Assembly: GCA_000405225.1 (NCBI GenBank)
Contig: ASMP01000001.1
Span: forward strand, 69,191-133,190
DNA: 64,000 nucleotides
Source of the DNA: Nanoarchaeota archaeon SCGC AAA011-D5
GTDB taxonomy: Archaea > Nanobdellota > Nanobdellia > Pacearchaeales > GW2011-AR1
Direction of reading: 5' to 3'
Below the pieces are notes generated by a model, which was not told the origin of the DNA, made no database searches, and saw nothing but the letters and a program-made list of their open reading frames with translations. A program made the translations under genes and the position numbers. Positions 1,890-64,000 of the stretch are shown piece by piece. How positions within the stretch are numbered: the stretch's first letter is position 1; each line of letters starts with the position of its first letter.

Positions 1890-3308
1890 ATGGAGACCGG
1901 AATTGATTATGAGTCTACGGGCCTGAAATGCGGCCTTGAAATTCATCAGCAACTTGACACAATGAAGCTTTTTTGCAACTGCCCTTCTCTTTTGAGGAGA
2001 GATGGGCCTGACTTTACAGTTAAAAGAAGGCTGCATGTTGTTCCTGGAGAGAGCGGGGAAATTGACATCGCAGCAGTCCATGAAGCTTCTCTTGAAAAAG
2101 AATTTACATACGAAAGCTATGATACAACCTGCCTTGTTGAGCTTGATGAAGAGCCTCCACATACAATAAATTCCGGCGCTTTGAAAATTGCCCTGCAGAT
2201 AGCGCTTCTTCTTAACTGCAAGATCCTTCCTGTGAGCCAAATTATGAGGAAAACAGTCATCGATGGAAGTAATACCTCTGGTTTCCAGAGAACTGTCCTG
2301 ATTGCCAGAGACGGATTTGTGGAAACAAGCCACGGAAAAATAGGAATTGCAACGCTTTGCCTGGAAGAGGATTCTGCGAGGATAATAGACAAGGAAAAAA
2401 ATGTTTTCAGGCTTGACAGGCTTGGAATTCCTCTCGTGGAAATTGCGACAGCAGCAGAAATAAAAACACCGCAACAAGCGAAGGAAACGGCCTTAAAACT
2501 CGGAGAAATTTTGCGAACATTACCAGTTAAAAGAGGTCTTGGGACAATAAGGCAAGATGTTAATCTATCTGTAAAAGGAGGAAAAAGAATTGAGCTCAAA
2601 GGTTTTCAGGACATAAGAAACATAGAAAGAGCCATAGAGATAGAAGTGAAAAGGCAACACGAACTGATAAAGCGCGGAAAAAGTATCCCAGAAGTAAGGG
2701 CAGTTAATGACGATGGCTCCAGCAGATTTTTAAGACCATTGCCTGGAGCAGCAAGAATGTATCCTGAAACAGACATTCCTCTTCTAAGGGTTTCAAGGGG
2801 AATGATTGATGAAGCAAAAAAGGAGCTGTCAAGTATTAAAGAAAAAGAAGTTAAGATTGAAGGGCTGAGTGGGGAGATGTCTGCCCTATTGTTGAGAGAG
2901 AGGAAACTTGATGAGTTTAAAGAACTGCTACATATTATTAAAAATCCGCAGCTGATTGCAAAAACACTCTTGATTTTTCCAAAGGAAATAGCCTCTAAAG
3001 AAAAAAAATCATTGGTTGAAATTGAAAAAATCCTTAACAGAGATGTTTTGGGAAATGTCATGGAAAATGTCAAAAAGGGAAAAATTAAGGAGTCAGAGAC
3101 AAAACACGCTCTGGAAAATATTGCTAAGGGCAAAGGCATTGAATTTGAAAAAGTGGATGAATCAGAGCTAGAGGAAAAAATTTCCAAGATTATAAAGGAA
3201 AAGCCAGGACTTTCCGTCAATGCTTACATGGGGCTTGTTATGAAGCAGTTCAGGGGAAAAATTTCTGGAAAAGAAGTCTCGGGAATAATAAGGAAACATC
3301 TGAAATAG
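1890..3308 (+). CDS. Asp/Glu-tRNA amidotransferase catalytic subunit, GatB/GatE family
   Basis: 472 aa. GLEIHQQLDT-KLFCNCPS N-terminus typical of GatB/GatE. C-terminal YqeY-like tail (NAYMGLVMKQFRGKISGKEVSGIIRKHL). Length fits GatB better than GatE, so the subunit is not resolved. Confidence 0.75.
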   Translation: METGIDYESTGLKCGLEIHQQLDTMKLFCNCPSLLRRDGPDFTVKRRLHVVPGESGEIDIAAVHEASLEKEFTYESYDTTCLVELDEEPPHTINSGALKIALQIALLLNCKILPVSQIMRKTVIDGSNTSGFQRTVLIARDGFVETSHGKIGIATLCLEEDSARIIDKEKNVFRLDRLGIPLVEIATAAEIKTPQQAKETALKLGEILRTLPVKRGLGTIRQDVNLSVKGGKRIELKGFQDIRNIERAIEIEVKRQHELIKRGKSIPEVRAVNDDGSSRFLRPLPGAARMYPETDIPLLRVSRGMIDEAKKELSSIKEKEVKIEGLSGEMSALLLRERKLDEFKELLHIIKNPQLIAKTLLIFPKEIASKEKKSLVEIEKILNRDVLGNVMENVKKGKIKESETKHALENIAKGKGIEFEKVDESELEEKISKIIKEKPGLSVNAYMGLVMKQFRGKISGKEVSGIIRKHLK

Positions 3309-3381
3309 TCTTTGAAAAAATCTTCATAAAAAGAAAATCTTAAAAAGTCTTTTTGAATTACTTAATCACTGAAAAAAAGCC

Positions 3382-3948
3382 ATGGTTCCGAAAAAAATAT
3401 TTTTTACAAAAGGAGTTGGAAGGAATAAGGAGAAGCTTGCAAGTTTTGAATCTGCTCTTAGAGATGCAGGTATTGAAAAATATAACCTTGTTCAAGTTTC
3501 CAGTATTCTTCCCCCAGGTTGCAAAATTGTTACTAAAGATGAAGGTTTAAAGTATTTATCTCCTGGAGAAATTGTCCATCATGTTATAGCAAGAGCAGAT
3601 ACAAATGAACGTAACAGGCTCGTTGCAGTTTCTATTGGTGTTGCAATTCCTTCTGACGAAAGCCAATACGGATATCTTTCAGAACACTATTCTTATGGAC
3701 AAACCGAGGAGGTGGCTGGGGGATATGCAGAAGACCTCGCTGCTAGCATGCTTGCAACGACTCTTGGAATTGAAATTGACCCTGAAAAAGATTGGGATGA
3801 AAGAGAGCAAGAATACAAGGCTTCCGGCAAAATAATAAGAACAAGGAATATCACACAATCTGCAGAAGGTAAGGACGGGCTTTGGACCACAGTCGTCTCT
3901 GCAGCTGTTCTTCTTAACGGTCTTGAAGGAAAAACGGATAATCAATAA
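3382..3948 (+). CDS. pdaD: pyruvoyl-dependent arginine decarboxylase
   Basis: 188 aa. N-terminal [13 protein letters not shown]...VSSILPPGC is characteristic of PdaD, including the self-cleavage serine region. Confidence 0.8.
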
Positions 3949-5262: not shown

Positions 5263-6570
5263 ATGACAGAAAAATTCATTTCAATTTCAGAAGCATTGAA
5301 GAAGGGAAATGGAAAGGTAGCTGTGCGCGGGTGGATTTACAGAGAGCGAGGAAGCAATGAATTCAAATTCCTTGTTTTAAGAGACAGCAGTGATATAATC
5401 CAGTGCGTCCTTAAAAAAGAGAAGTTCAAGAAACAATGGGAGGAAATTGACAAGATTCAGGTTGAAACAAGCGTTGAAATTGAAGGAACAATTAAGAAAG
5501 ATTCCAGAGCACCAACCGGCTACGAAATTGATGTAGATGAGACAAAAATAATTGGTGTGAGCAAAGATTTCCCTATAAATAAAAGCCTTAATGAAGAACT
5601 TTTAGGAGACAGGAGACATCTTTGGCTTAGAAGCAGGAAGATGAATTCAATCATGAAAATCAGAGACACAGTATTAAGAGCGATGAGAGAGCATTGGCAT
5701 AAAAAAGGGTTTTATGAATATCACTCCCCCACTTTGCTCGGAATGCAGGCAGAAGGTGGAGCAACCCTTTTCAAGGTGGATTATTTTGGAAAACCGTTGT
5801 ATCTTAGCCAGACATGGCAGCTGCATGCAGAAGCAGGAATCTTTTCTCTGGAAAAAATATTCACCATACAGCCGAGTTTCCGTGCAGAAAAAAGCAAAAC
5901 ATCGAGGCATCTTACTGAATACTGGCATGCTGAGATGGAAGTTGCATGGGAAGATTTTGACTACCTTCAGGACGATGCAGAGCAGTTGATTAAGCATATT
6001 GTTGAAAAGGTTTTGCAGGAAAGAAAACCAGAGCTGGAAATTCTTGGAAGGGATTGGAAAAAATTGGAGGCAACTATCAGAAAAAAATTCCCGAGAATAA
6101 CCTATGACTATGCTTTGAAACTTCTGAAGGAAAAAAAGAAAATCAGCATTCCGTGGGGAAAAGATCTTAGAACAATAGAAGAGGATAAGCTTTCAGAACT
6201 TTACGACACTCCAATAATGGTCAGGCATTATCCTAAAATTGTAAAGGCTTTTTACATGAAAGAGGTGCCAAACACGGAAAAAGGAAAAGAAACCGTATTT
6301 GGCTTTGACATGATAGCACCTGAAGGTTATGGAGAGCTTGTCGGTGGTTCACAGAGAGAAGAAGATATTGAAAAGCTCAAGAAGAATTTGAAAGCTCAGG
6401 GAGAAGACCCAAGCAAGTATGAATTTTACTTTGACACCAGAAGATATGGTAGCGTTCCTCATGGTGGCTTTGGAATGGGTGTTGAAAGAGTGATTTCTTG
6501 GATATGCGGACTTGAAACAATAAAAGACGCTATTGCTTTCCCGAGAACGATGACAAGATGGAGTCCTTAA
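5263..6570 (+). CDS. asnS: asparaginyl-tRNA synthetase
   Basis: SFRAEKSKTSRHLTEYWHAEMEVAW and GGFGMGVERVISW closely resemble AsnRS. Starts 2 nt after aspS. Confidence 0.85.
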   Translation: MTEKFISISEALKKGNGKVAVRGWIYRERGSNEFKFLVLRDSSDIIQCVLKKEKFKKQWEEIDKIQVETSVEIEGTIKKDSRAPTGYEIDVDETKIIGVSKDFPINKSLNEELLGDRRHLWLRSRKMNSIMKIRDTVLRAMREHWHKKGFYEYHSPTLLGMQAEGGATLFKVDYFGKPLYLSQTWQLHAEAGIFSLEKIFTIQPSFRAEKSKTSRHLTEYWHAEMEVAWEDFDYLQDDAEQLIKHIVEKVLQERKPELEILGRDWKKLEATIRKKFPRITYDYALKLLKEKKKISIPWGKDLRTIEEDKLSELYDTPIMVRHYPKIVKAFYMKEVPNTEKGKETVFGFDMIAPEGYGELVGGSQREEDIEKLKKNLKAQGEDPSKYEFYFDTRRYGSVPHGGFGMGVERVISWICGLETIKDAIAFPRTMTRWSP

Positions 6571-6617
6571 AATTTTAAGATGCAAAACTCTTAAAAACTC
6601 TCGGCTTTTCCTTTTTT

Positions 6618-7283
6618 ATGAAAATGAATGGTGTGGAACTTAAATGGCTGGGACACTCTGGATTCCAGATAAAAAACCATAGAGTCATTTACATAGATCC
6701 TTACAATATCAGTGATGGATTGGAAAAAGCAGACATAGTTCTTATAACCCACAGCCATTACGATCACTGCAGTTTTGCTGATCTGGACAAGATAATCAAG
6801 GAAGGAACAAGAATAATTGCACCAGCTGCCTGCCAGAGCACTATAGCTAAATTCAAAGTTCCTCTGAAGATAGAATTGGCAGAGTCTGGCCAGGAACTTG
6901 AACTGGGAGATTTGAAGATATCAACACTTCCCTCTTATAATATAAATAAACATTTCCATCCACAATCAGAAGGTTGGGTTGGATATGTTATGAAGATTGG
7001 AGATATTATTATTTATCATTCAGGTGATACAGACCTAATTCCGGAAATGCAGAAGCTTACTGGCTACAAACAGCAGGGAAAAGAGTTCGTGGCCCTCTTA
7101 CCTGTTGGTGGCAGATTTACAATGAGTGCAGAGGAAGCTGCAGAAGCAGCTAGCATAATAAAACCCACTCTTGCAGTGCCGATGCACTGGGGCTCTATCG
7201 TGGGAACAGAGGAAGACGCAAAAGAGTTTGTGGAATTATGCAAGAAAGAAGGAATAAGAGCGGAAATTTTGGAGAAAGAATAA
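6618..7283 (+). CDS. MBL-fold metallo-hydrolase
   Basis: LITHSHYDHCS metallo-beta-lactamase metal-binding motif. Confidence 0.7.
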   Translation: MKMNGVELKWLGHSGFQIKNHRVIYIDPYNISDGLEKADIVLITHSHYDHCSFADLDKIIKEGTRIIAPAACQSTIAKFKVPLKIELAESGQELELGDLKISTLPSYNINKHFHPQSEGWVGYVMKIGDIIIYHSGDTDLIPEMQKLTGYKQQGKEFVALLPVGGRFTMSAEEAAEAASIIKPTLAVPMHWGSIVGTEEDAKEFVELCKKEGIRAEILEKE

Positions 7284-16326: not shown

Positions 16327-18354
16327 TTAAGTTCTTCCGATATAACCTCTTCTTGGCCGGAAAACAACGCCGCTCATATCTAATTTAGTTATCGCTTCTT
16401 CTATTTCATCTTTTGTTAGTTTCCCATCGAGTTCTTTTTCAATCTCTTCTATTGGAATCATTTTTCCGAGTCTGTTTTCCAGCTGCGCTATCAAATCCCT
16501 TACTATGAAAACCTTGTTCCTCTGTGAGGCAGGCATTCCTCCTGTTCCCCTGTCTATATCGAAGGTTTTTGATTCGTAGTCATAACCAACCTGCATCAGG
16601 TAATATTTTATTATTTCTATTGCTCTTTTTGCATCCTCTATATCCACGGTTTCGCTGAGCCGCATTTTTGCAGAAGCCTCGGCCATTCTTATTAATGCCT
16701 GGAGTTGCCTCGCTGAAATTGGAATCGAGGGGATAGCCCCTTCCCCAGAGACAGGGGTGTTTCTAAGCTCGACATAAAACTTTTTTATTTCTTTTACTGC
16801 TTCGTCACTCAGTACCGGAATTATTCTCTGTTTTGCATAGGCCACATATTTTCTCAAGAGGTCTCTTGAAATCAGCATTTCTTCTCCCATTTTCTGATGC
16901 TCGTGAAGAACATGGGTTGCAATAAGCTCATCTTTTTCTTTATTGGGCAAATCTCTCAGAGGAAAGATGACGTCAAATCTGTTTATCAAAGTTGGAGGAA
17001 GATCTATCTGCTCTGCTATTGACTGGAACGGGTTAAAACGTCCGAATTTTGGATTTGCCGCAGCCAGGACAGATGTCTCTGCCCTCAGAGTTGCATGCAC
17101 ATTTGCTTTCGAGATTGTTACTGTCTGCTGCTCCATCGCTTCATGCATTGAGCTCCTGTCTCCAGGATCCATTTTCTCAAGCTCGTCTATACAGACGAGC
17201 CCTTTGTTGGCAAGAACCATCGAGCCTGCTTCCAAAGACCAACCGCGGAGATATTCATCCCGGACAACTGTGGCTGTTAAACCAGCTCCGGTAGTGCTTT
17301 TTCCAACAACATATCTTCCTTTTGGCGAAATCCCTGCCATAAATACAAGAGTCGCGGATTTTGCAACTCCCGGATCTCCAATCAAAAGGATATGAAAATC
17401 TCCTCTGCTTTTCTGCCCGTCTGTATGGATTTTTTTAACTCCTCCGAAAAGCTGCAAAATCAGGCACCTTTTTATCTCGTCATAACCCCAGACACTTGGA
17501 ATAATGCTTTTTGTAAGTTTTTCAAATACTTTGGGATCCTGGGAAAGCTCGAGAATCTGTCTCTCGTCCTCATCGTTAATATCAAGTTGTTCAAAAGTCT
17601 CCTCCAAAGGGATGATGTTGTTTGCCTCTACTGCAAGTTCAAACCTCGTTGAAAGCCCCCCTGATTGCAATGGAACAGGAACTTCTTTGAGGATCCCCAT
17701 CACCTTTACCCTACTTCCAGGAGTTGTTTTTTCCTCCATGTTTGGTTCTACCAAATCTTCTTTAAGAAAAACATTTATCCTTTTTGGCTGTTCCCCTCCT
17801 GTGAGGGATTCTGGAGACTCTTCTATGACTAGTCTCTGTGTATCTACCATTTCTTTGCTTATCAGTTTGAATCCTCCCCTGCGACCGCAAGAGCATCTCG
17901 TTGGTTCTCTGAATTTTTTTTCTATCTGAAGAAAAGAGAGAACTGTTCCGCAGCTGGGACATTCGAACTTTGCATTCACTATCTGCGGTCTTACGTCGCT
18001 TGCCTGCCGCACAATCCCCTCAACAACCACCATTTCATTAAGGTTCCTGGAACGTAAATTTCTTACCTTTATATCCTGGCTTTTAGGGAGATTCAAAAGC
18101 CTGGCCCGAACGTTTTCCGCGAGTCCTTTCTCCTCAATAGCAAGCTCCAAAACTCTGATATTCTCTTCTGGATTTGTGAGAATTCCTTCTGCCAGTTTGT
18201 TTGAATATTCGAGAAGCTTCATAAAATCCAGAAAAATAATATTTTTACCTTTTCGCAGAGATTCTCCAAGCTCTCTTTTATAGAAATCAAAGAATCCTTT
18301 GGCCTCAATGATCAGTTCCTCCTCTTTAGATTTTGAAAGCTGAGTTTCTTCCAT
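16327..18354 (-). CDS. mcm: MCM replicative helicase
   Basis: Walker A ILLIGDPGVAKS, Walker B and arginine finger region, zinc motif CPSCG...CSCG. 675 aa with no intein. Confidence 0.9.
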   Translation of the reverse strand: MEETQLSKSKEEELIIEAKGFFDFYKRELGESLRKGKNIIFLDFMKLLEYSNKLAEGILTNPEENIRVLELAIEEKGLAENVRARLLNLPKSQDIKVRNLRSRNLNEMVVVEGIVRQASDVRPQIVNAKFECPSCGTVLSFLQIEKKFREPTRCSCGRRGGFKLISKEMVDTQRLVIEESPESLTGGEQPKRINVFLKEDLVEPNMEEKTTPGSRVKVMGILKEVPVPLQSGGLSTRFELAVEANNIIPLEETFEQLDINDEDERQILELSQDPKVFEKLTKSIIPSVWGYDEIKRCLILQLFGGVKKIHTDGQKSRGDFHILLIGDPGVAKSATLVFMAGISPKGRYVVGKSTTGAGLTATVVRDEYLRGWSLEAGSMVLANKGLVCIDELEKMDPGDRSSMHEAMEQQTVTISKANVHATLRAETSVLAAANPKFGRFNPFQSIAEQIDLPPTLINRFDVIFPLRDLPNKEKDELIATHVLHEHQKMGEEMLISRDLLRKYVAYAKQRIIPVLSDEAVKEIKKFYVELRNTPVSGEGAIPSIPISARQLQALIRMAEASAKMRLSETVDIEDAKRAIEIIKYYLMQVGYDYESKTFDIDRGTGGMPASQRNKVFIVRDLIAQLENRLGKMIPIEEIEKELDGKLTKDEIEEAITKLDMSGVVFRPRRGYIGRT

Positions 18355-18406
18355 CTTAAATATTAAAATTGATACAGAAGTTATTTTTATACTTTGTTGT
18401 AAACTA

Positions 18407-18751
18407 TTGAATAGTTTGCAGATGTTTCTGGACTGCGGTTTTTCTTTAGAGAGTGGAAACCCTTTTCAGAATCGTGCAAAGATTAATAAATGGCCTCTTT
18501 TTACGACAACGATGCCTCTGGAAAAAACAACACAAACAACACAAAAGTCCAGACTCCAGCATATCTTAGAAAAAAATAGTTCAGGAAAAGGAGTGACTTC
18601 GGAAGAATACAAAGAAGCCAGAAAATTAATCTTGAATCCAAAATACTCAGACAAAAAGTGTTGTCTTTGCTTTAATCCAATGAATAAATCGATTTACGAT
18701 ACAGAATTATGTCCACCTCATGCGTTCTATGAATTAATCAGAACAAAATAA
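18407..18751 (+). CDS. hypothetical protein
   Basis: ORF only, Cys-rich C-terminus. Confidence 0.3.
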   Translation: MNSLQMFLDCGFSLESGNPFQNRAKINKWPLFTTTMPLEKTTQTTQKSRLQHILEKNSSGKGVTSEEYKEARKLILNPKYSDKKCCLCFNPMNKSIYDTELCPPHAFYELIRTK

Positions 18752-35972: not shown

Positions 35973-38354
35973 ATGCCCATAACAAAACAAGAATTGACAG
36001 AGCTCTTTGAACAGCTTGGACAATACAAAACAAGGGCTACAGAACTTATAACTGTATATATTCCTGCCGGACAGAACATATATACGGTGGCTGACCAGCT
36101 CGAGGCAGAGAAATCTACTGCGAAAAACATAAAATCTGCAGGAACCAGGAAAAATGTCGGCAATGCTCTTGATAAGATAACCAGGCAGCTTAAGGAATAC
36201 AAAAAAACCCCTGAAAACGGTCTTGCAATTTTTTGCGGGAACATATCCAAAGTTGAAGGCCAAGAAGATTTACAACTTTGGGCTATAGAGCCTCACACGC
36301 CTCTGAAAACAAGAATGTATCGCTGTGACAAAGAATTTATTCTTGATCCTCTGAGAGAAATGCTGGAAGTGACAGAGGTTTTTGGACTTTTGGTCATGGA
36401 CAGGAGAGAGGCAACAATTGGCATGCTTGAGGGAAAAAGGATAGAGACTCTTCATAAAATGACTTCAGGTATTCCTTCAAAAATAAGGGCCGGAGGGCAA
36501 TGCTTAGCTCAGGATACATTGATTATGAAAGATAATGGGGAAATCTTAGAAATTCAGAATTCACACAACCCCTTAATGATTATTTCTGAGAATTTTAATC
36601 AAGAGAGATCAGAAATGACACCCTTAATTGCTAAATGGGAAAATAACAAAGAATTGTTTAGGGTTATAACAAAATATCCTAAATTAGAGGTTAAAGCATC
36701 TGGTGAACATACTTTCTTTGTTAGGACAACCAGAGGTATAGAGGAAAAAACTCTTTCTGAACTTAAAGAGGGAGATTATCTAATTATGCCTGAAAAGATT
36801 AATTTACATTTGGAAGACCAAAAAATTGTCTTTTCTCCAGAAATTAAACAAGCCTTTAATATGAAAAATATCCAAACTCTTAATAAAGTTATTCCTGATT
36901 TTGCTAGAATTTTGGGCTATTATCTTGGAGATGGATGTTATGAAATTGACAGATTAACTTTCTTTGAACAGAGAGGAGAAGTAGCTAGATATTATCTGGA
37001 TTTAATTGAGAAGGTTTTTGGAATTAAATCTGACTTAAGATTTAGAAAAGATAAAAATTATTGGCAATTAAGGGTTTATAGCAGATTGGTCTCTCAATTA
37101 TTTAAACAAATTTATCCTGGACAAGATAAAACCCATGCCGGAAGAATACCCCCTATCATATTAAAATCTTCTGATATTGCCCTAGCTTCTTTCATTGGGG
37201 GATTTTTTGATGCTGAAGGATATGTTGCAAAAACAAGAATTGCTGCAGGATTTAACAATGAATTGTTAGCTAGACAATTACAATTTGCTTTATTGAGGGT
37301 AGGTATCATATCTTCAATAAATATTTATGATAATAGAAGAAACCCTTATTCAGACAAATTTAGATATACTCTGGCAATTGACGATTTAGAATCTATTAAA
37401 ATCTTCCAAAAAATGATTAACTTTTGTTCTGAAGAAAAAAGGAATAAGATTCAAAACCTAATTAACAAGAGGAGCAATAGAAATAAAGTTAGGCAATTAG
37501 TTGTAAATGGGAAAGAGATTGCTAGAATAATAAGGAATTCTGGTTTAAATACGAGGCAATTTAGCTGCCCTGATTTCTTTAATAATAAGAAACAATTAAG
37601 TAAAAAGGTATTTAAAAAGAGAATCTTAGATAAAATTAGTAATAATGACCTAAAAAGAAGATTAGAAATGTTCTATAATTCCAACCTTATAATTGTCAAA
37701 ATTAATAATATTAAATCGGTTGGTATTCAGAAAACTATAGATATAGAAACTAAAAACCATAACTTTATTGCCAATGGTTTAATAGTCCACAATTCAAGCC
37801 AGAGATTTCACAGAATAACAGAAGGCCTGACAAAAGAATTCTATAAGAGAATTGCAGAAGACATGAAAAAAATTTTCCTTGGAATGCCAAAACTTAAAGG
37901 AATACTGATAGGGGGCCCGATACCGACTAAAGACGAGTTTTTAAAAGGGGAATATCTGACAAATCAGCTTCAGCAGAAAGTAATGGGAAAGATAGACATA
38001 GGAGATGCCTCTGAGTCTGGTCTGGGAGAACTGGTGGAAAAAGCGAAGAATCTTTTGGCAGACCAAGAGAGGCTTCAGGAAAAAAAAGACGTTGAACTTT
38101 TCTTCAGGGTTTTAGGGGAAGACCCTGGAAAAGCAGCACTCGGTGAAAAAGAAAGCAGAAAGGCCTTGGAAATGGGAGCTGTTGCTACTTTATATGTAAG
38201 TTCCAAGATTCCCAAGAGTCTTATAAAAGAACTTTCAAAAATGACCGAAAACACAGGTTCAGAAATAAAGACCATTTCTACAGATACACCGGAAGGCGAG
38301 CAGTTTTTTAATATGGGCGGAGTAGGAGCAATTTTAAGATTCAGGATTGGGTAA
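35973..38354 (+). CDS. prf1: peptide chain release factor aRF1 interrupted by an intein
   Basis: NIKS motif (TAKNIKSAG) and GGQ loop (IRAGGQ) followed directly by Cys. Extein resumes SSQRFHRITEG. C-terminal domain matches eRF1. Confidence 0.85.
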   Translation: MPITKQELTELFEQLGQYKTRATELITVYIPAGQNIYTVADQLEAEKSTAKNIKSAGTRKNVGNALDKITRQLKEYKKTPENGLAIFCGNISKVEGQEDLQLWAIEPHTPLKTRMYRCDKEFILDPLREMLEVTEVFGLLVMDRREATIGMLEGKRIETLHKMTSGIPSKIRAGGQCLAQDTLIMKDNGEILEIQNSHNPLMIISENFNQERSEMTPLIAKWENNKELFRVITKYPKLEVKASGEHTFFVRTTRGIEEKTLSELKEGDYLIMPEKINLHLEDQKIVFSPEIKQAFNMKNIQTLNKVIPDFARILGYYLGDGCYEIDRLTFFEQRGEVARYYLDLIEKVFGIKSDLRFRKDKNYWQLRVYSRLVSQLFKQIYPGQDKTHAGRIPPIILKSSDIALASFIGGFFDAEGYVAKTRIAAGFNNELLARQLQFALLRVGIISSINIYDNRRNPYSDKFRYTLAIDDLESIKIFQKMINFCSEEKRNKIQNLINKRSNRNKVRQLVVNGKEIARIIRNSGLNTRQFSCPDFFNNKKQLSKKVFKKRILDKISNNDLKRRLEMFYNSNLIIVKINNIKSVGIQKTIDIETKNHNFIANGLIVHNSSQRFHRITEGLTKEFYKRIAEDMKKIFLGMPKLKGILIGGPIPTKDEFLKGEYLTNQLQQKVMGKIDIGDASESGLGELVEKAKNLLADQERLQEKKDVELFFRVLGEDPGKAALGEKESRKALEMGAVATLYVSSKIPKSLIKELSKMTENTGSEIKTISTDTPEGEQFFNMGGVGAILRFRIG
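36501..37793 (+). mobile_element. intein with LAGLIDADG homing endonuclease, inserted after GGQ of aRF1
   Basis: Starts with Cys (CLAQDTLI), ends ...GLIVHN followed by Ser. Two LAGLIDADG-type motifs ILGYYLGDGCYE and FIGGFFDAEGYV. About 431 aa. Confidence 0.75.
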
Positions 38355-38428: not shown

Positions 38429-39199
38429 ATGGAAACAAAGGCAAAACGTCCAGTATTCAATGGAAAGCCGTTAATTGCAATTCCAGCAGTTATTCCACAG
38501 GCAGGTTTTCTTGAAGGAGACTTTGGAAAAGCTTTCTTAGAAGAATATCAAGGAAGAGTTAAATCTGATTATAAAGGAAATTTTGTTTTAGATGTTCTCA
38601 AATATGGAAATGATGTTGTAAAAGGCTCAAATCCTTTTGCAGTTGTTCTTGCAAACCAGATTCTCAGGCAGGAAGGATTAAGAACAGCAACACAAGCTGA
38701 CCTTGAAAAAGCACTTAGAATTGGTTGGAATTTAAGAGGAACATATGAAGATACTGGTCTGGTTTTAAGAACAAAAGAAGACAAAGACAATCCAAAAAAT
38801 ACTCCTTTAGCGAAAGATATTAGCTCTCAACTTATGGCAAGGGGAATAAAATTCAGTCCTAAGAATCCAGTAATGGTTCCTTTAACAGGACTGGAACTTG
38901 CGAATGCAGATAATGATTACAGATTAACATTCATATTAAGGGAAGACGCAGAAGCTTATGAAGCACCTATTTTAACAAAAGAAGGAAAATTCAATTCAGA
39001 AGATATTGATGAAAAAACAGGATTACCAAGACAAGTTAAAGGCGGAGACAGATGCATTTATGCTAGAAACTCTGGGCTTTCCGGGTTGTGCTTGGGCGGC
39101 GGCCTGGTCCTGAGCTCGAGCGACGGGGGCTTGGGCGGCTCCTATGAGGATGGCAGGGTGGTCGTTGTAAGTGCTGAAGGCACCTCACAAAATTCTTGA
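38429..39199 (+). CDS. DGR variable (target) protein 2, remote paralog carrying VR2
   Basis: 256 aa, roughly 70% identical to 21005-21886 over the N-terminal 210 aa. C-terminus diverges only where the TR has adenines. Confidence 0.7.
   Translation: METKAKRPVFNGKPLIAIPAVIPQAGFLEGDFGKAFLEEYQGRVKSDYKGNFVLDVLKYGNDVVKGSNPFAVVLANQILRQEGLRTATQADLEKALRIGWNLRGTYEDTGLVLRTKEDKDNPKNTPLAKDISSQLMARGIKFSPKNPVMVPLTGLELANADNDYRLTFILREDAEAYEAPILTKEGKFNSEDIDEKTGLPRQVKGGDRCIYARNSGLSGLCLGGGLVLSSSDGGLGGSYEDGRVVVVSAEGTSQNS
39076..39161 (+). repeat. DGR variable repeat VR2 (remote)
   Basis: Aligns to TR 22081-22166. About 22 mismatches, all at TR adenines. Substitutions differ from VR1 (for example AAC to GTC/AGC/GAC). 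Confidence 0.7.
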
Positions 39200-39245
39200 A
39201 TCTGATTGCTAAAAACTTTTAAAACTTCTTTGGCTTTTACCTTAT

Positions 39246-39881
39246 ATGCAAAAAAACAGAGGAGACCTAATATTCTGGCTGTTCGGCTCTTATCTAATCC
39301 TTATAGGAATGCTTGCCTTTGTCAATGCTTTCTTGCATCTGGAAGATGCTATTCCATTATGGTTTTCTTATATCGCTGTTTTTCTTATCGGAATTGGAGT
39401 CATCACAAAAAATTCTGATATGATTGCAATCCAAGCAAACATTATCGCCATACCATATATTTTCTGGAATATTGATTTTTTTTATCAACTGGCAACCAGC
39501 AGACCTTTATGGGGAATCACCGACTATTTTTTTATCAAAGAGGGGATGAATTCGCTGGGCAATTTCGTAACTCTGGAGCATATTTACATTGTTCCTGTCG
39601 CGATAGGGTTTATTTATCTTCTCGGAGCCCATAGAAAAGATTTATGGAAAATAAGCTTACTCGAAATAGCTATCATCTTTTTCATGACTTTTTTCCTTTC
39701 TTCTAGTGAAATGAATGCCAACTGCGTCTTTAGTTCCTGCATAAGCTTCATTTCTTTAGAAAGCCCTGGTTACCAATTCTTATGGTTTTTTACTGTTTTT
39801 ATCATAATCTTCTTGACAAATCATCTTCTTGTTTATCTTATGAAAAAGGCTCACAGATTTGATATGAAGCCCGATGAATAA
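39246..39881 (+). CDS. membrane protein, hypothetical
   Basis: Multiple TM helices. Confidence 0.45.
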   Translation: MQKNRGDLIFWLFGSYLILIGMLAFVNAFLHLEDAIPLWFSYIAVFLIGIGVITKNSDMIAIQANIIAIPYIFWNIDFFYQLATSRPLWGITDYFFIKEGMNSLGNFVTLEHIYIVPVAIGFIYLLGAHRKDLWKISLLEIAIIFFMTFFLSSSEMNANCVFSSCISFISLESPGYQFLWFFTVFIIIFLTNHLLVYLMKKAHRFDMKPDE

Positions 39882-61528: not shown

Positions 61529-63574
61529 TTAAAAATCCCCCAGTTTTGTCTGTTTTTTTCCTTCCGTGATCTCCTTTACATCTATGTTAAAAACCTGGAA
61601 GATGTTTTCAACTGCCGGAAGAATCTGCCTGTTCAAGTAATATTCAATATTGTATTCTCCTTTTTCTTCGACAAGCTTTACACAATCTCTCACGAGTTTT
61701 TTCTTTTCCCTGGTTTCTGCTATAAAATATTCAATTAGGTTAGCTCCGCTTATCGGAATTCCAAGTTCTCTCATTTTTCTCGCAGCGATAACATGCGGAG
61801 AAATTGCCTTATACTCTGAAAGGGGTTTCTGGAGCATTGTCCTTATAGTTATTTCTTCTCTGGAAACTTCACGATTTTTGACTTTCTTGATAATTTCTTT
61901 TAGGTGTTCTAAGGCTCTTTTTTCATTGCCATCTTCCAGGACAAGGCGAATGACCCTGTTTTGCAATTCTCTCGCAAGATGGCACCAGTCTCTTCTCACT
62001 GTTTCAAATCCACGTATTTTCAGCCTGTTATCTTTTCCAGTTAAGGCATATTTCTTTTTTGCCCCGATTGTTCCTGTCCTTTTTGTAACCCACAATCCAC
62101 GAGTAAAAAACCCCTCCAGTTCAAGTTCCATTACTCCCGGAAGTTCGTTGTTCAGTCTTTCAAGAAGAGCAAGAGCCTGTGCCTCACTCTTTTTTTGCAT
62201 AAGGAATGCTATGCTGTCTGTGTCTGAATAGATCACTTTGTAGCCCGCTTTGTCTATTTTTTCAATTGTTTTTTTTATGAAATCCCTGCTGATTGCTTTT
62301 GCTGTTGCAGAGGCTTCAGGGCAATAATATCTTGCTCCAAAAAATCCCTGATAACCATAAGAGGCATTTGCGAGAAGTTTGAAGGCATTGCTCCTTGCCT
62401 TTTTGATTGCATCCGGTTTTTCTTTTAGTTCGTGCTTATATTGTTTTCTCTTCTCTATTATCTCCCTAAGCATTTCAGGAAAAAATGCCGGCTTTTTCGA
62501 GAAATAAAATCTTTTTCCGCCGACTTCAACTTCAAGAAAATCCTTTTCTTTTTTTTCCGAAAAGGAAGATCTTGAAAGATTGAAAGTCACTATGATGCTT
62601 GGCCAGAAACTTGTGAAATCAAAAACACAGATATCTTCATATAAACCCGGAGTTGGCTCAAAGACAAAAGCACCTTCATATTTTGGCCTACGCATCCTGG
62701 TGCTAATTTCTTCATGTACTGGTTTCTTTTCAGGAATTTCCCCGAATCTGTCTAGGTTATGTATTATATAATCCTCAACATTGTTGGACATGCCGTTTCT
62801 CGTTACAGAGAAAACAGGCTCCTGCATGATTCTTGTGAATTCAAGAATGTCTGGCCAGAATTTCTGGAAAAGCCCATAGGCAAGAACAGAATCATGGAGA
62901 TTATATTCAAAATAGCTGTCCCATTCTTCTTTCTTGATTTTTGAGGAGTGTTTGAATTTGAAGTCTTTTTTTGTGTCTCCTAAAAATTCTCGGGAAACTT
63001 CATTGAGAGAAAGGGTTTCAGACTGCATGTATTGCGAGTATGCTGTCTGGATAAATTTCATAAGGTCAATATGCACGATTCCCGACACTTTTCCTGTTGG
63101 AAGGGCCCCGCGGAAAAATCTTGGCTGGCTGTTATCCAAACCAAGAGCCAGAGAAACTCCAAGCTTCACTGCTCTTTCTTTCAAATAAGGCAAGTCAAAT
63201 CCGTCTGAAAAATAACCAACAAGAAAATCGGGAGAAGTCTTCTTAACATAAGATACAAACTTTTCTAAGAGTTCTTTTTCATTTTTTACAACTTCCACAT
63301 AGTCTGCTTTTGGCTTCCTTCCGCCCCCCGTCTTCCAGGTAAGAACTTTTTTGAAATTTTCCGAAACCATGGAAATCATGAGGATTTCACCCTCTCCTAT
63401 CCCGAACTCATCTGCTTCTATATCATAAGTAAGGACTTTTGGGGAGAATGCGTGAATGTCTGCTTTTTTTTGGCTTTGGAGCTTCATGCATAGATCAACC
63501 TGCAACTCTTGGTCGATTCCTCCAAATTCTCCAGAATTGTCAAGAACCTCTCCCTCTACTTCATACCATTGCAA
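61529..63574 (-). CDS. polB: family-B DNA polymerase, exonuclease + polymerase domains (C-terminal ORF of a frame-split polB)
   Basis: Exo motif YDIEA, polymerase motifs SLYPS-like, KKYA (KKKYALTGK), YSDTDS. ORF begins at an alternative TTG start only because of a frame break in an A8 run at 63585-63592. Confidence 0.9.
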   Translation of the reverse strand: MQWYEVEGEVLDNSGEFGGIDQELQVDLCMKLQSQKKADIHAFSPKVLTYDIEADEFGIGEGEILMISMVSENFKKVLTWKTGGGRKPKADYVEVVKNEKELLEKFVSYVKKTSPDFLVGYFSDGFDLPYLKERAVKLGVSLALGLDNSQPRFFRGALPTGKVSGIVHIDLMKFIQTAYSQYMQSETLSLNEVSREFLGDTKKDFKFKHSSKIKKEEWDSYFEYNLHDSVLAYGLFQKFWPDILEFTRIMQEPVFSVTRNGMSNNVEDYIIHNLDRFGEIPEKKPVHEEISTRMRRPKYEGAFVFEPTPGLYEDICVFDFTSFWPSIIVTFNLSRSSFSEKKEKDFLEVEVGGKRFYFSKKPAFFPEMLREIIEKRKQYKHELKEKPDAIKKARSNAFKLLANASYGYQGFFGARYYCPEASATAKAISRDFIKKTIEKIDKAGYKVIYSDTDSIAFLMQKKSEAQALALLERLNNELPGVMELELEGFFTRGLWVTKRTGTIGAKKKYALTGKDNRLKIRGFETVRRDWCHLARELQNRVIRLVLEDGNEKRALEHLKEIIKKVKNREVSREEITIRTMLQKPLSEYKAISPHVIAARKMRELGIPISGANLIEYFIAETREKKKLVRDCVKLVEEKGEYNIEYYLNRQILPAVENIFQVFNIDVKEITEGKKQTKLGDF

Positions 63575-64000
63575 TGGTAAAATTTTTTTTCAATGATATA
63601 ATGAGTTATAAATCCCAGGTCATAGCCACGTCTTTTTTCTATCTCTTTAAGGCCAAGCCTGTCTGCTACATCATGCAAGTCTTTGTAATTTGTTGCAAAG
63701 ATTTTAAGAGCATTGACTTCTTTTCCAAGAAAGTTTTTTTTATGAAGTTCAACAGCTTCTACTTTTGTCTGCCTGCCTTTAGTGTCTAGTTTTATTTTCC
63801 TTATCTTTTCCACAAGATCCTTTATCTTTTTATCGCTGAGGCCGGATTCCAAAACAGCCCAGAAATAAACAGGACACGAATCAATAATGCACAGCCTTTT
63901 TCCATGAGAATCCCTTCCTATCATCCTTATGTAATTTCTATCCTTAAAATCAAAGTAATCATAATCTACGGGAATAAATGTTGTTTTCATCCTTTTGATA
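63556..64000 (-). CDS. polB: family-B DNA polymerase N-terminal domain (5' ORF of polB, continues past window end)
   Basis: N-terminal PolB domain. Ends IIEKKFYHCNGMK*. Adding one A to the A8 run gives ...IIEKKILPLQWYEVEG..., contiguous with 61529-63574. Confidence 0.8.
   Translation of the reverse strand, partial: IKRMKTTFIPVDYDYFDFKDRNYIRMIGRDSHGKRLCIIDSCPVYFWAVLESGLSDKKIKDLVEKIRKIKLDTKGRQTKVEAVELHKKNFLGKEVNALKIFATNYKDLHDVADRLGLKEIEKRRGYDLGFITHYIIEKKFYHCNGMK

Follow-up and report, generated by a model that had tools for sequence, protein, structure and literature searches.

A window of 64,000 nucleotides (nt) from the genome of Nanoarchaeota archaeon SCGC AAA011-D5 (contig ASMP01000001.1; "the window" is the whole stretch of DNA that was analyzed, and coordinates refer to it) carries a gene for the archaeal release factor aRF1 that is split, directly behind the codons of the catalytic GGQ motif, by a large in-frame insert. 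The insert has the hallmarks of an intein with a LAGLIDADG homing endonuclease. On the evidence of the sequence and its homologs, the gene very probably encodes an aRF1 precursor in which a class 1 full-length intein lies between Gln176 and Ser608 and is predicted both to splice and to act as a homing endonuclease. The features of the gene are listed here (aa, amino acids).

35973-38354, + strand: aRF1 precursor gene, a single uninterrupted open reading frame (ORF) of 793 codons plus stop; predicted mass, 90.9 kDa
35973-36500, + strand: N-extein, aa 1 to 176, covering aRF1 domain 1 plus the start of domain 2; Pfam eRF1_1 at aa 17 to 131
36126-36137, + strand: NIKS motif, aa 52 to 55, in the N-extein
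36318-36338, + strand: YxCxxxF motif in the form YRCDKEF, aa 116 to 122, in the N-extein
36492-36500, + strand: GGQ motif, G174-G175-Q176, the last codons before the insert
36501-37793, + strand: intein, 431 aa (aa 177 to 607), 50.4 kDa, isoelectric point (pI) 9.6; Pfam Intein_splicing and LAGLIDADG_3
36501-36539, + strand: splicing block A, CLAQDTLIMKDNG; Cys177 is intein residue 1 and predicted first nucleophile (Cys in 119/120 homologs)
36699-36722, + strand: splicing block B, SGEHTFFV, with SxxH replacing the usual TxxH; S243 and H246 invariant in a 51-sequence alignment
36885-37472, + strand: LAGLIDADG homing endonuclease domain, approximately aa 305 to 500; two LAGLIDADG_3 stretches and the PI-PfuI match
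36909-36944, + strand: LAGLIDADG motif 1, ILGYYLGDGCYE, aa 313 to 324, acidic residue D320; core LGYYLGD320G
37191-37226, + strand: LAGLIDADG motif 2, FIGGFFDAEGYV, aa 407 to 418, acidic residue E415; core GGFFDAE415G
37473-37682, + strand: helical module, aa 501 to 570, between the endonuclease and the C-terminal splicing region; AlphaFold2 helices at 513 to 568
37683-37793, + strand: C-terminal splicing region, containing blocks F and G; TIGR01443 match
37737-37778, + strand: block F, IDIETKNHNFIANG, within the C-terminal splicing region
37779-37793, + strand: block G, LIVHN, with His606-Asn607 (H-N in 120/120 homologs)
37794-38354, + strand: C-extein, aa 608 to 793 plus stop, with the remainder of domain 2 and domain 3; Pfam eRF1_2 and eRF1_3
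37794-37796, + strand: Ser608, predicted +1 nucleophile, codon TCA, first residue of the C-extein

Host gene and intein anatomy

The flanks of the insert match all three Pfam families of the release factor (eRF1_1, eRF1_2, and eRF1_3). The NCBIfam equivalog TIGR03676 (aRF1_eRF1; cutoff, 234.7 bits) scores 387 bits on the precursor and 415.3 bits on the protein spliced in silico, where the match is one stretch that crosses the junction. This spliced protein has 362 aa and a predicted mass of 40.5 kDa, and its predicted junction peptide contains IRAGGQSSQRFHR. When the ligated extein is aligned with the solved aRF1 structures 4af1 and 3agk and with eRF1, the alignment runs free of gaps through GGQS(S/A)QRF. 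Because the NIKS and YxCxxxF motifs are also present alongside these profile and alignment matches, we regard the host as an ordinary aRF1.

The insert begins with CLAQDTLIMK and ends with NGLIVHN, after which the host resumes with SSQRFHRITEG. It matches Pfam Intein_splicing (PF14890; 63.9 bits, E = 2e-17; cutoff, 35.8), LAGLIDADG_3 (PF14528; 56.8 bits over two stretches; cutoff, 22.5), and TIGR01443 (intein_Cterm; 24.2 bits; cutoff, 15.6), and these matches are far beyond chance. The traits by which an intein is recognized in a sequence are present: a nucleophile at residue 1, a block B, a terminal His-Asn followed by Ser at position +1, a curated profile match, and homologs that correspond to the ligated extein. 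The same holds for a two-motif LAGLIDADG endonuclease, in that both motifs have the acidic residue and a Gly end and that profile and fold matches accompany them.

The original prediction, made from the sequence alone, had placed a 431-aa insert at 36501 to 37793, directly after GGQ, and its coordinates proved exact to the base. Its reading of an insert that starts with Cys and ends with His-Asn followed by Ser is borne out by Cys177, His606-Asn607, and Ser608, and the two LAGLIDADG-type motifs it reported lie at aa 313 to 324 and aa 407 to 418. The comparison with splicing-block and LAGLIDADG profiles that it called for gave the Pfam matches and conserved residues described here, together with a predicted fold like those of 7qss, 1dq3, and PI-SceI. 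It had also spoken of a "mini-intein plus homing endonuclease"; intein and endonuclease were both recovered, but "mini-intein" is the wrong term for what is a standard bifunctional full-length intein.

The HINT splicing domain is interrupted by a two-motif LAGLIDADG endonuclease and by the helical module. In a relaxed Pfam search, aa 501 to 570 gave no Pfam match and no helix-turn-helix (HTH) match. The Pfam domain HTH_3 does occur within the inteins of related MCM and aRF1 proteins, and, because of this, of its position, and of its predicted helices, the module is presumed to be an extra DNA-binding region. In base composition the intein stands apart from its host, with a GC content of 0.29 versus 0.41 for the exteins and a third-codon-position GC content (GC3) of 0.23 versus 0.37.

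Predicted structure and closest known systems

An AlphaFold2 model of the whole precursor, computed from a 51-sequence alignment, had a mean pLDDT of 79.9. The endonuclease, modeled at a pLDDT of ~90, consists of two mixed helix/strand repeats, and low-confidence stretches fall in the GGQ loop (168 to 175), in an intein loop (199 to 220), and at the start of the C-extein (609 to 616). The best intein match in a Foldseek search against the PDB was TliVMA (7qss; E = 3.8e-23, TMt 0.75); aRF1 (4af1; TMt 0.70), PI-PfuI, PI-SceI, and many ribosome-bound eRF1 structures were matched as well. I-Tsp061I was likewise among the sequence and structural matches of the endonuclease. By its matches to 7qss, 1dq3, and 1vde, the modeled splicing domain has the HINT fold.

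The best match by sequence among solved structures is PI-PfuI, the intein of the Pyrococcus furiosus ribonucleotide reductase (1dq3; E = 1.5e-16 over intein residues 42 to 328, including the FDAEG motif; Foldseek E = 3.6e-20). Both are HINT domains split by a two-motif LAGLIDADG endonuclease. However, PI-PfuI has ribonucleotide reductase as its host and another insertion site, its identity in the structural alignment is only ~22%, and it differs from the window intein in the region that follows the endonuclease, where the latter has its helical module. The best structural matches are TliVMA and PhoVMA, from the V-ATPase A subunit (7qss, 7qsu, and 7qst), and PI-SceI, from yeast VMA1 (1vde and 1lws). 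Like the window intein, these VMA inteins have the character of classical homing inteins in the catalytic loop of an essential protein, although their sequence identity is 11 to 16% and their host and DNA target are different. Splicing and homing are experimentally proven for PI-SceI and predicted for the aRF1 intein.

Outside aRF1, the closest relatives are inteins of archaeal MCM (P0281, P0299, and P0306) and RadA (P0298), at 27 to 32% identity (E = 1e-31 to 1e-41). Their architecture, HINT plus double LAGLIDADG, is the same, but their hosts are proteins of replication and recombination, where inteins are usually found, and they themselves contain a recognizable HTH_3 domain. A precedent for a core translation factor is the intein of aIF2/IF-2, which differs in factor and site; the top NCBIfam match of the window intein is an intein-containing IF-2 model (NF011418; E = 6.8e-16), and a published survey (PMC4760082) counts aIF2 among the archaeal hosts of inteins.

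Proposed splicing and homing

The steps proposed here rest on established intein chemistry. Cys177 would attack the Gln176-Cys177 bond in an N-S acyl shift, the N-extein would be moved onto the side chain of Ser608, and Asn607 would then cyclize, aided by His606, and free the intein. An O-N shift would finally give a normal Gln176-Ser608 peptide bond. The expected products are an aRF1 of 362 aa (40.5 kDa), whose GGQSSQRF loop is intact, and a free, basic intein of 50.4 kDa (pI 9.6). Either the free intein or the precursor would serve as the endonuclease, which may be expected to cut intein-less aRF1 genes at the GGQ-coding site, so that repair would copy the intein in (homing).

The GGQ loop of aRF1 and eRF1 must enter the peptidyl-transferase center. 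The unspliced precursor is therefore presumably inactive in peptide release: a 50-kDa domain in the GGQ loop should block catalysis, which would make splicing obligatory. Like the original prediction, we infer that the host needs splicing to be functional, and we consider this sound.

Distribution of the intein

In a scan that took a single genome for each GTDB species, 105 loci were confirmed and 80 were kept, and the intein lies at GGQ/S (the slash marks the splice junction) in 74 of these 80, the other 6 being truncated or unparseable. The taxa named in the titles of these loci include Pacearchaeota, Woesearchaeota, Nanoarchaeota, Iainarchaeum/Diapherotrites, Aenigmatarchaeota, and Bilamarchaeaceae, and the aRF1 GGQ intein is thus widespread through much of DPANN. 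Altogether, the site holds this intein in at least 120 protein clusters and in at least 74 genomes at the species level, and the intein comes in two size classes of ~431 aa and ~505 aa. The lower GC content of the intein is general: of 74 loci, 73 have an intein that is richer in AT than the host gene (mean GC, 0.29 versus 0.38).

An exhaustive HMMER search with the intein alone against 1.84 billion cluster representatives returned 2,896 proteins at E ≤ 1e-3. Among the best 150 of these matches (representatives of clusters at 50% identity), 64 have aRF1 exteins with the intein at the same site. More than 100 independent assemblies (NCBI, ENA, JGI, and Logan) show the same precursor architecture, and a protein identical to that of the window is on record at NCBI and in the Logan assembly of SRR3927433.

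Empty and mini-intein alleles

Empty alleles were drawn from a protein search and from a junction-spanning DNA pattern, since the genome scan returned intein-bearing loci only. When the ligated extein was used as the query, 117 of the 120 best matches were intein-free aRF1 proteins of ~362 aa and up to 91% identity, most of them reading GGQSSQRFHRI; one of those at 91% identity (P0121) reads RAGGQSSQRFHRI. The three nearest extein relatives of the window protein are all intein-free, and the nearest intein-bearing homolog ranks lower, with 86% extein identity.

At the DNA level, a locus with an empty allele from the Hainich groundwater metagenomes (L082) shares neighboring genes with the window and is collinear with it save for a gap of exactly 1,293 bp. 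As these are exactly the bases of the intein, its boundaries are confirmed. Across the junction, the ligated extein of the window reads GGAGGGCAA joined directly to TCAAGCCAGAGA, and the natural empty allele in L082 reads GGAGGGCAG joined to AGCAGCCAGCGC. The seamless junction expected in the original prediction is therefore seen three times over, in the gap-free alignment with 4af1 and 3agk, in the match of the ligated extein to intein-free alleles, and in the exact gap of L082. The survey of relatives that it had recommended turned up intein-free, full-length intein, and mini-intein alleles.

The mini-inteins, three among the 120 extein matches, have 138 to 155 aa, occupy the same site, and are without an endonuclease. 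Because they are only 28 to 37% identical to the splicing parts of the window intein, we regard them as a separate intein lineage. One such allele lies in a close relative. Upstream, the L206 contig is 97.0% identical to the window over 1,088 nt, reaching 5 nt into the intein, and downstream it is 95.8% identical over 333 nt; between these flanks, L206 positions 1241 to 1706 hold, opposite window positions 36506 to 37799, an unrelated endonuclease-free mini-intein of ~466 nt (~155 aa) at GGQ/S. Since the flanks are nearly identical and the inteins unrelated, strains related at roughly the species level differ in the intein that occupies the site, and this contrast is the most direct sign in these sequences of recent turnover. 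Beyond window position 38132 the L206 contig diverges, and its end is rearranged or chimeric.

Signs of mobility

In some pairs of homologs, the divergence of the inteins does not match that of the exteins. In one pair of homologs (P0030 and P0032), the exteins are 98% identical and the inteins only 73%, while in other pairs exteins of ~55% identity accompany inteins of ~75% identity. For the full set of pairs, the correlation between intein distance and extein distance is only moderate (r = 0.49, Mantel P ~0.001).

A further pattern concerns the codon of the +1 Ser. In intein-bearing GTDB loci with the junction AGGQ/SSQRFHR, this codon is TCN in 28 of 28 cases and AGY in none (0/28), whereas the 120 empty metagenomic alleles that share this peptide divide into 54 with AGY and 66 with TCN. 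The occupied and empty sites differ significantly at this codon (Fisher P = 1e-6) but not at the neighboring +2 Ser codon (P = 0.40). The TCN and AGY codons of Ser are two mutations apart, and such a pattern would be expected if the endonuclease spares sites with AGY or if co-conversion carries the flank along with the intein. As the test takes no account of shared ancestry, the contrast is suggestive but does not amount to proof.

In the closest intein-bearing relative (P0002, locus L207, also from Hainich groundwater), the aRF1 gene has only 79% nt identity to that of the window, whereas the DNA just downstream has 94% (L207 positions 3243 to 3511 versus window positions 39210 to 39478). A 256-aa ORF at window positions 38429 to 39199, which has no Pfam match, is absent from L207. 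This contrast suggests a mosaic locus or an aRF1 plus intein allele that was imported by recombination. Patchy occupancy, the different intein of L206, the discordant divergence in some pairs, and the +1 Ser codon form a population pattern that fits a continuing gain, loss, and replacement of the intein, which is apparently still mobile in DPANN archaea.

Conservation and alternative explanations

The homolog set comprised 120 clusters at the 90% identity level, which share an architecture of ~790 aa and are 61 to 100% identical to the window protein. Beyond the near-invariant Cys1 (119/120) and invariant His-Asn, GGQ is present in 120/120 and Ser at +1 in 120/120. The one homolog without Cys1 (P0031; GGQ/RLSEDT...) has Arg at intein position 1 in an otherwise intact aRF1-intein protein; this Arg should block splicing, and the protein may represent either a dead allele or a sequencing error. 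In the 51-sequence alignment, the LAGLIDADG cores are invariant from G315 to G321 (except L318) and from G410 to Y417, including D320 and E415. In all-pairs comparisons, the intein (identity, 0.70) is as conserved as its host (N-extein, 0.70; C-extein, 0.62). The helical module is the best-conserved part of the intein (identity, 0.74 to 0.77), and the intein is 431 aa long in 104 of 118 homologs.

Several points weigh against the reading of a splicing and homing intein. TIGR01445 (intein_Nterm) falls slightly under its cutoff (20.4 versus 24.5 bits), and block B has Ser where Thr is usual, a form that we still count as a block B. The homolog sets were picked by similarity to the query, and neither the codon contrast nor the distance correlations take phylogenetic non-independence into account. 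The median ratio of nonsynonymous to synonymous substitution rates (dN/dS), taken from 156 pairs of GTDB species-representative DNA sequences, was 0.17 for the intein and 0.22 both for its endonuclease domain and for flanking extein codons, values that are approximate because dS is near saturation (~1.4). A dN/dS of ~0.2 indicates purifying selection on the endonuclease, and such selection would fit a co-opted function as well as it fits active homing. A scan of the window found no second aRF1 and no second intein of the same family within these 64 kb of the genome, and an intein-free aRF1 copy may lie elsewhere in it.

Other explanations are less likely. The intein may splice but be fixed, with an endonuclease that no longer homes and with precise deletion from an essential catalytic loop being nearly impossible. 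Its occurrence in several DPANN phyla at one site and at a near-constant length (431 aa in 104 of 118) might be the result of ancient vertical inheritance, in keeping with the positive correlation of intein and extein distances (r = 0.49, Mantel P ~0.001). Yet a decaying endonuclease should drift, and here the LAGLIDADG cores are invariant and dN/dS is ~0.2, like that of the host; what endonuclease loss looks like can be seen in the mini-inteins, which form a separate lineage. Empty alleles are plentiful among the closest relatives, the nearly identical strain L206 holds a different intein, and there are extein-identical pairs with divergent inteins, all of which make fixation unlikely. Somewhat less probable still is that the intein has been co-opted, such that conditional splicing at GGQ is a posttranslational switch that determines how much active release factor DPANN archaea have and the conserved "endonuclease" has this or another host function. 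The whole intein is indeed unusually well conserved, on a par with the extein, and it adjoins the single residue that performs catalysis; conditional splicing is reported for other archaeal inteins, such as that of RadA (PMC5238726, PMC11409957). However, the conservation is explained just as well by active homing, we noted no obvious redox-sensitive residue other than Cys1, and many close relatives are intein-free or, in some cases, have a minimal endonuclease-free intein, which a selfish homing cycle predicts and an essential regulator does not. We consider it a long shot that DPANN archaea keep the intein, endonuclease, and helical module through host-level selection as a splicing gate on translation termination, a gate that could, for example, tie the amount of active release factor to redox state, temperature, or growth state.

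Finally, many such proteins are named "hypothetical" or "LAGLIDADG family homing endonuclease" at NCBI, as might be the case if the 431-aa segment were a lineage-specific insertion domain that aRF1 retains or an artifact of assembly or gene calling. Against a retained domain, the splicing residues are all present and conserved, empty alleles correspond exactly to the ligated exteins, and 431 aa inside the GGQ loop are incompatible with entry of that loop into the peptidyl-transferase center; against an artifact, the same architecture recurs in more than 100 independent assemblies. Both variants are effectively refuted. The reading of a full-length intein that splices and homes is the one that we retain.

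Genomic context and annotation

A class I tRNA synthetase gene lies just upstream of aRF1 in the window, which also encodes MetRS, MCM, a family B DNA polymerase, and DNA ligase, as well as a topoisomerase, CDC48, GatB/E, and one tRNA-Ile. These surroundings are those of an ordinary DPANN chromosome. MCM and PolB are classical archaeal intein hosts, and the window genes for MCM (16330-18465, - strand) and the family B DNA polymerase (61532-63589, - strand) are both intein-free.

Database labels for the intein-bearing proteins vary. The JGI pipeline names some of them "eRF1/intein/homing endonuclease," and NCBI often uses "LAGLIDADG family homing endonuclease" or "hypothetical." As these genes are often misannotated in this way, an annotator who goes by names would mistakenly record aRF1 as absent from such genomes.

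Inteins cluster in replication and repair proteins. A full-text literature search turned up no paper on a natural intein in aRF1 or eRF1. In its main text, the survey cited above states that core translation components "contain few inteins" and makes no mention of any release factor (PMC4760082), and a paper on giant viruses mentions eRF1 and inteins separately (PMC5871332).

Unusual aRF1 variants outside the window

To our knowledge, GGQ is universally conserved in these release factors. Outside the window, we observed aRF1 proteins that depart from it. In a search with the spliced extein of P0274, 118 of the 120 best matches belonged to a large clade of intein-free aRF1 proteins of 400 to 410 aa that read GGWS (P0391 to P0510); the W is invariant down to 57% identity, and several of these proteins are named as Aenigmatarchaeota. 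In the sequences read, the NIKS and YxCxxxF motifs are intact. GGW genes at L204 and L205 (positions 6001 to 7218 in each) adjoin genes for the ribosomal proteins L3, S11, S4, and S13, and only one flanking gene is common to the GGW and GGQ aRF1 loci compared (L080 versus L204). A genetic-code artifact was considered and rejected, the codon being a genuine TGG in frames without in-frame stops. The GGW aRF1 may be either the sole factor of its genomes or a paralog, and no description of it was found in a full-text literature search.

Variant motifs also occur in intein-bearing aRF1 proteins, namely GGF (P0252, P0268, P0284, and P0303), GGM (P0279, P0286, P0292, P0301, and P0307), GGS (P0273), and GGW (P0270, P0274, P0277, P0293, and P0317). 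For the class with the junctions GGx/C...HN/SQ, where x is W, F, or M, we rejected a nonstandard splice register, as only the standard boundaries keep the spacing GG-x-S-x-x-R followed by Y or F. Because these boundaries preserve the canonical loop length, mature GGF, GGM, GGS, and GGW proteins would lack the catalytic Gln.

In two other aRF1 proteins, P0289 (aa ~125 to 367) and P0304 (aa ~131 to 639), a second intein lies inside the stop codon recognition motif YxCxxxF, directly before its Cys. The junctions read ...YLYM/C...intein...HN/CDDH followed by Y or F, so that the Cys of the motif acts as the +1 nucleophile. With these second inteins, both signature motifs of aRF1 are intein targets.

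Significance

The aRF1 intein is a homing intein of the textbook type in a new and notable host site, and it brings no new mechanism. What sets it apart is its position at the catalytic residue for peptide release, where every molecule of the termination factor in such cells would need protein splicing. Empty sites, endonuclease-bearing inteins, and endonuclease-free mini-inteins are all found at this site, and all stages of the homing cycle are thus visible in public data. The locus therefore offers a natural system in which the dynamics of inteins, and gene flow, can be studied in archaea that are host-dependent and uncultivated, and the same system is suited to asking whether protein splicing can regulate translation.

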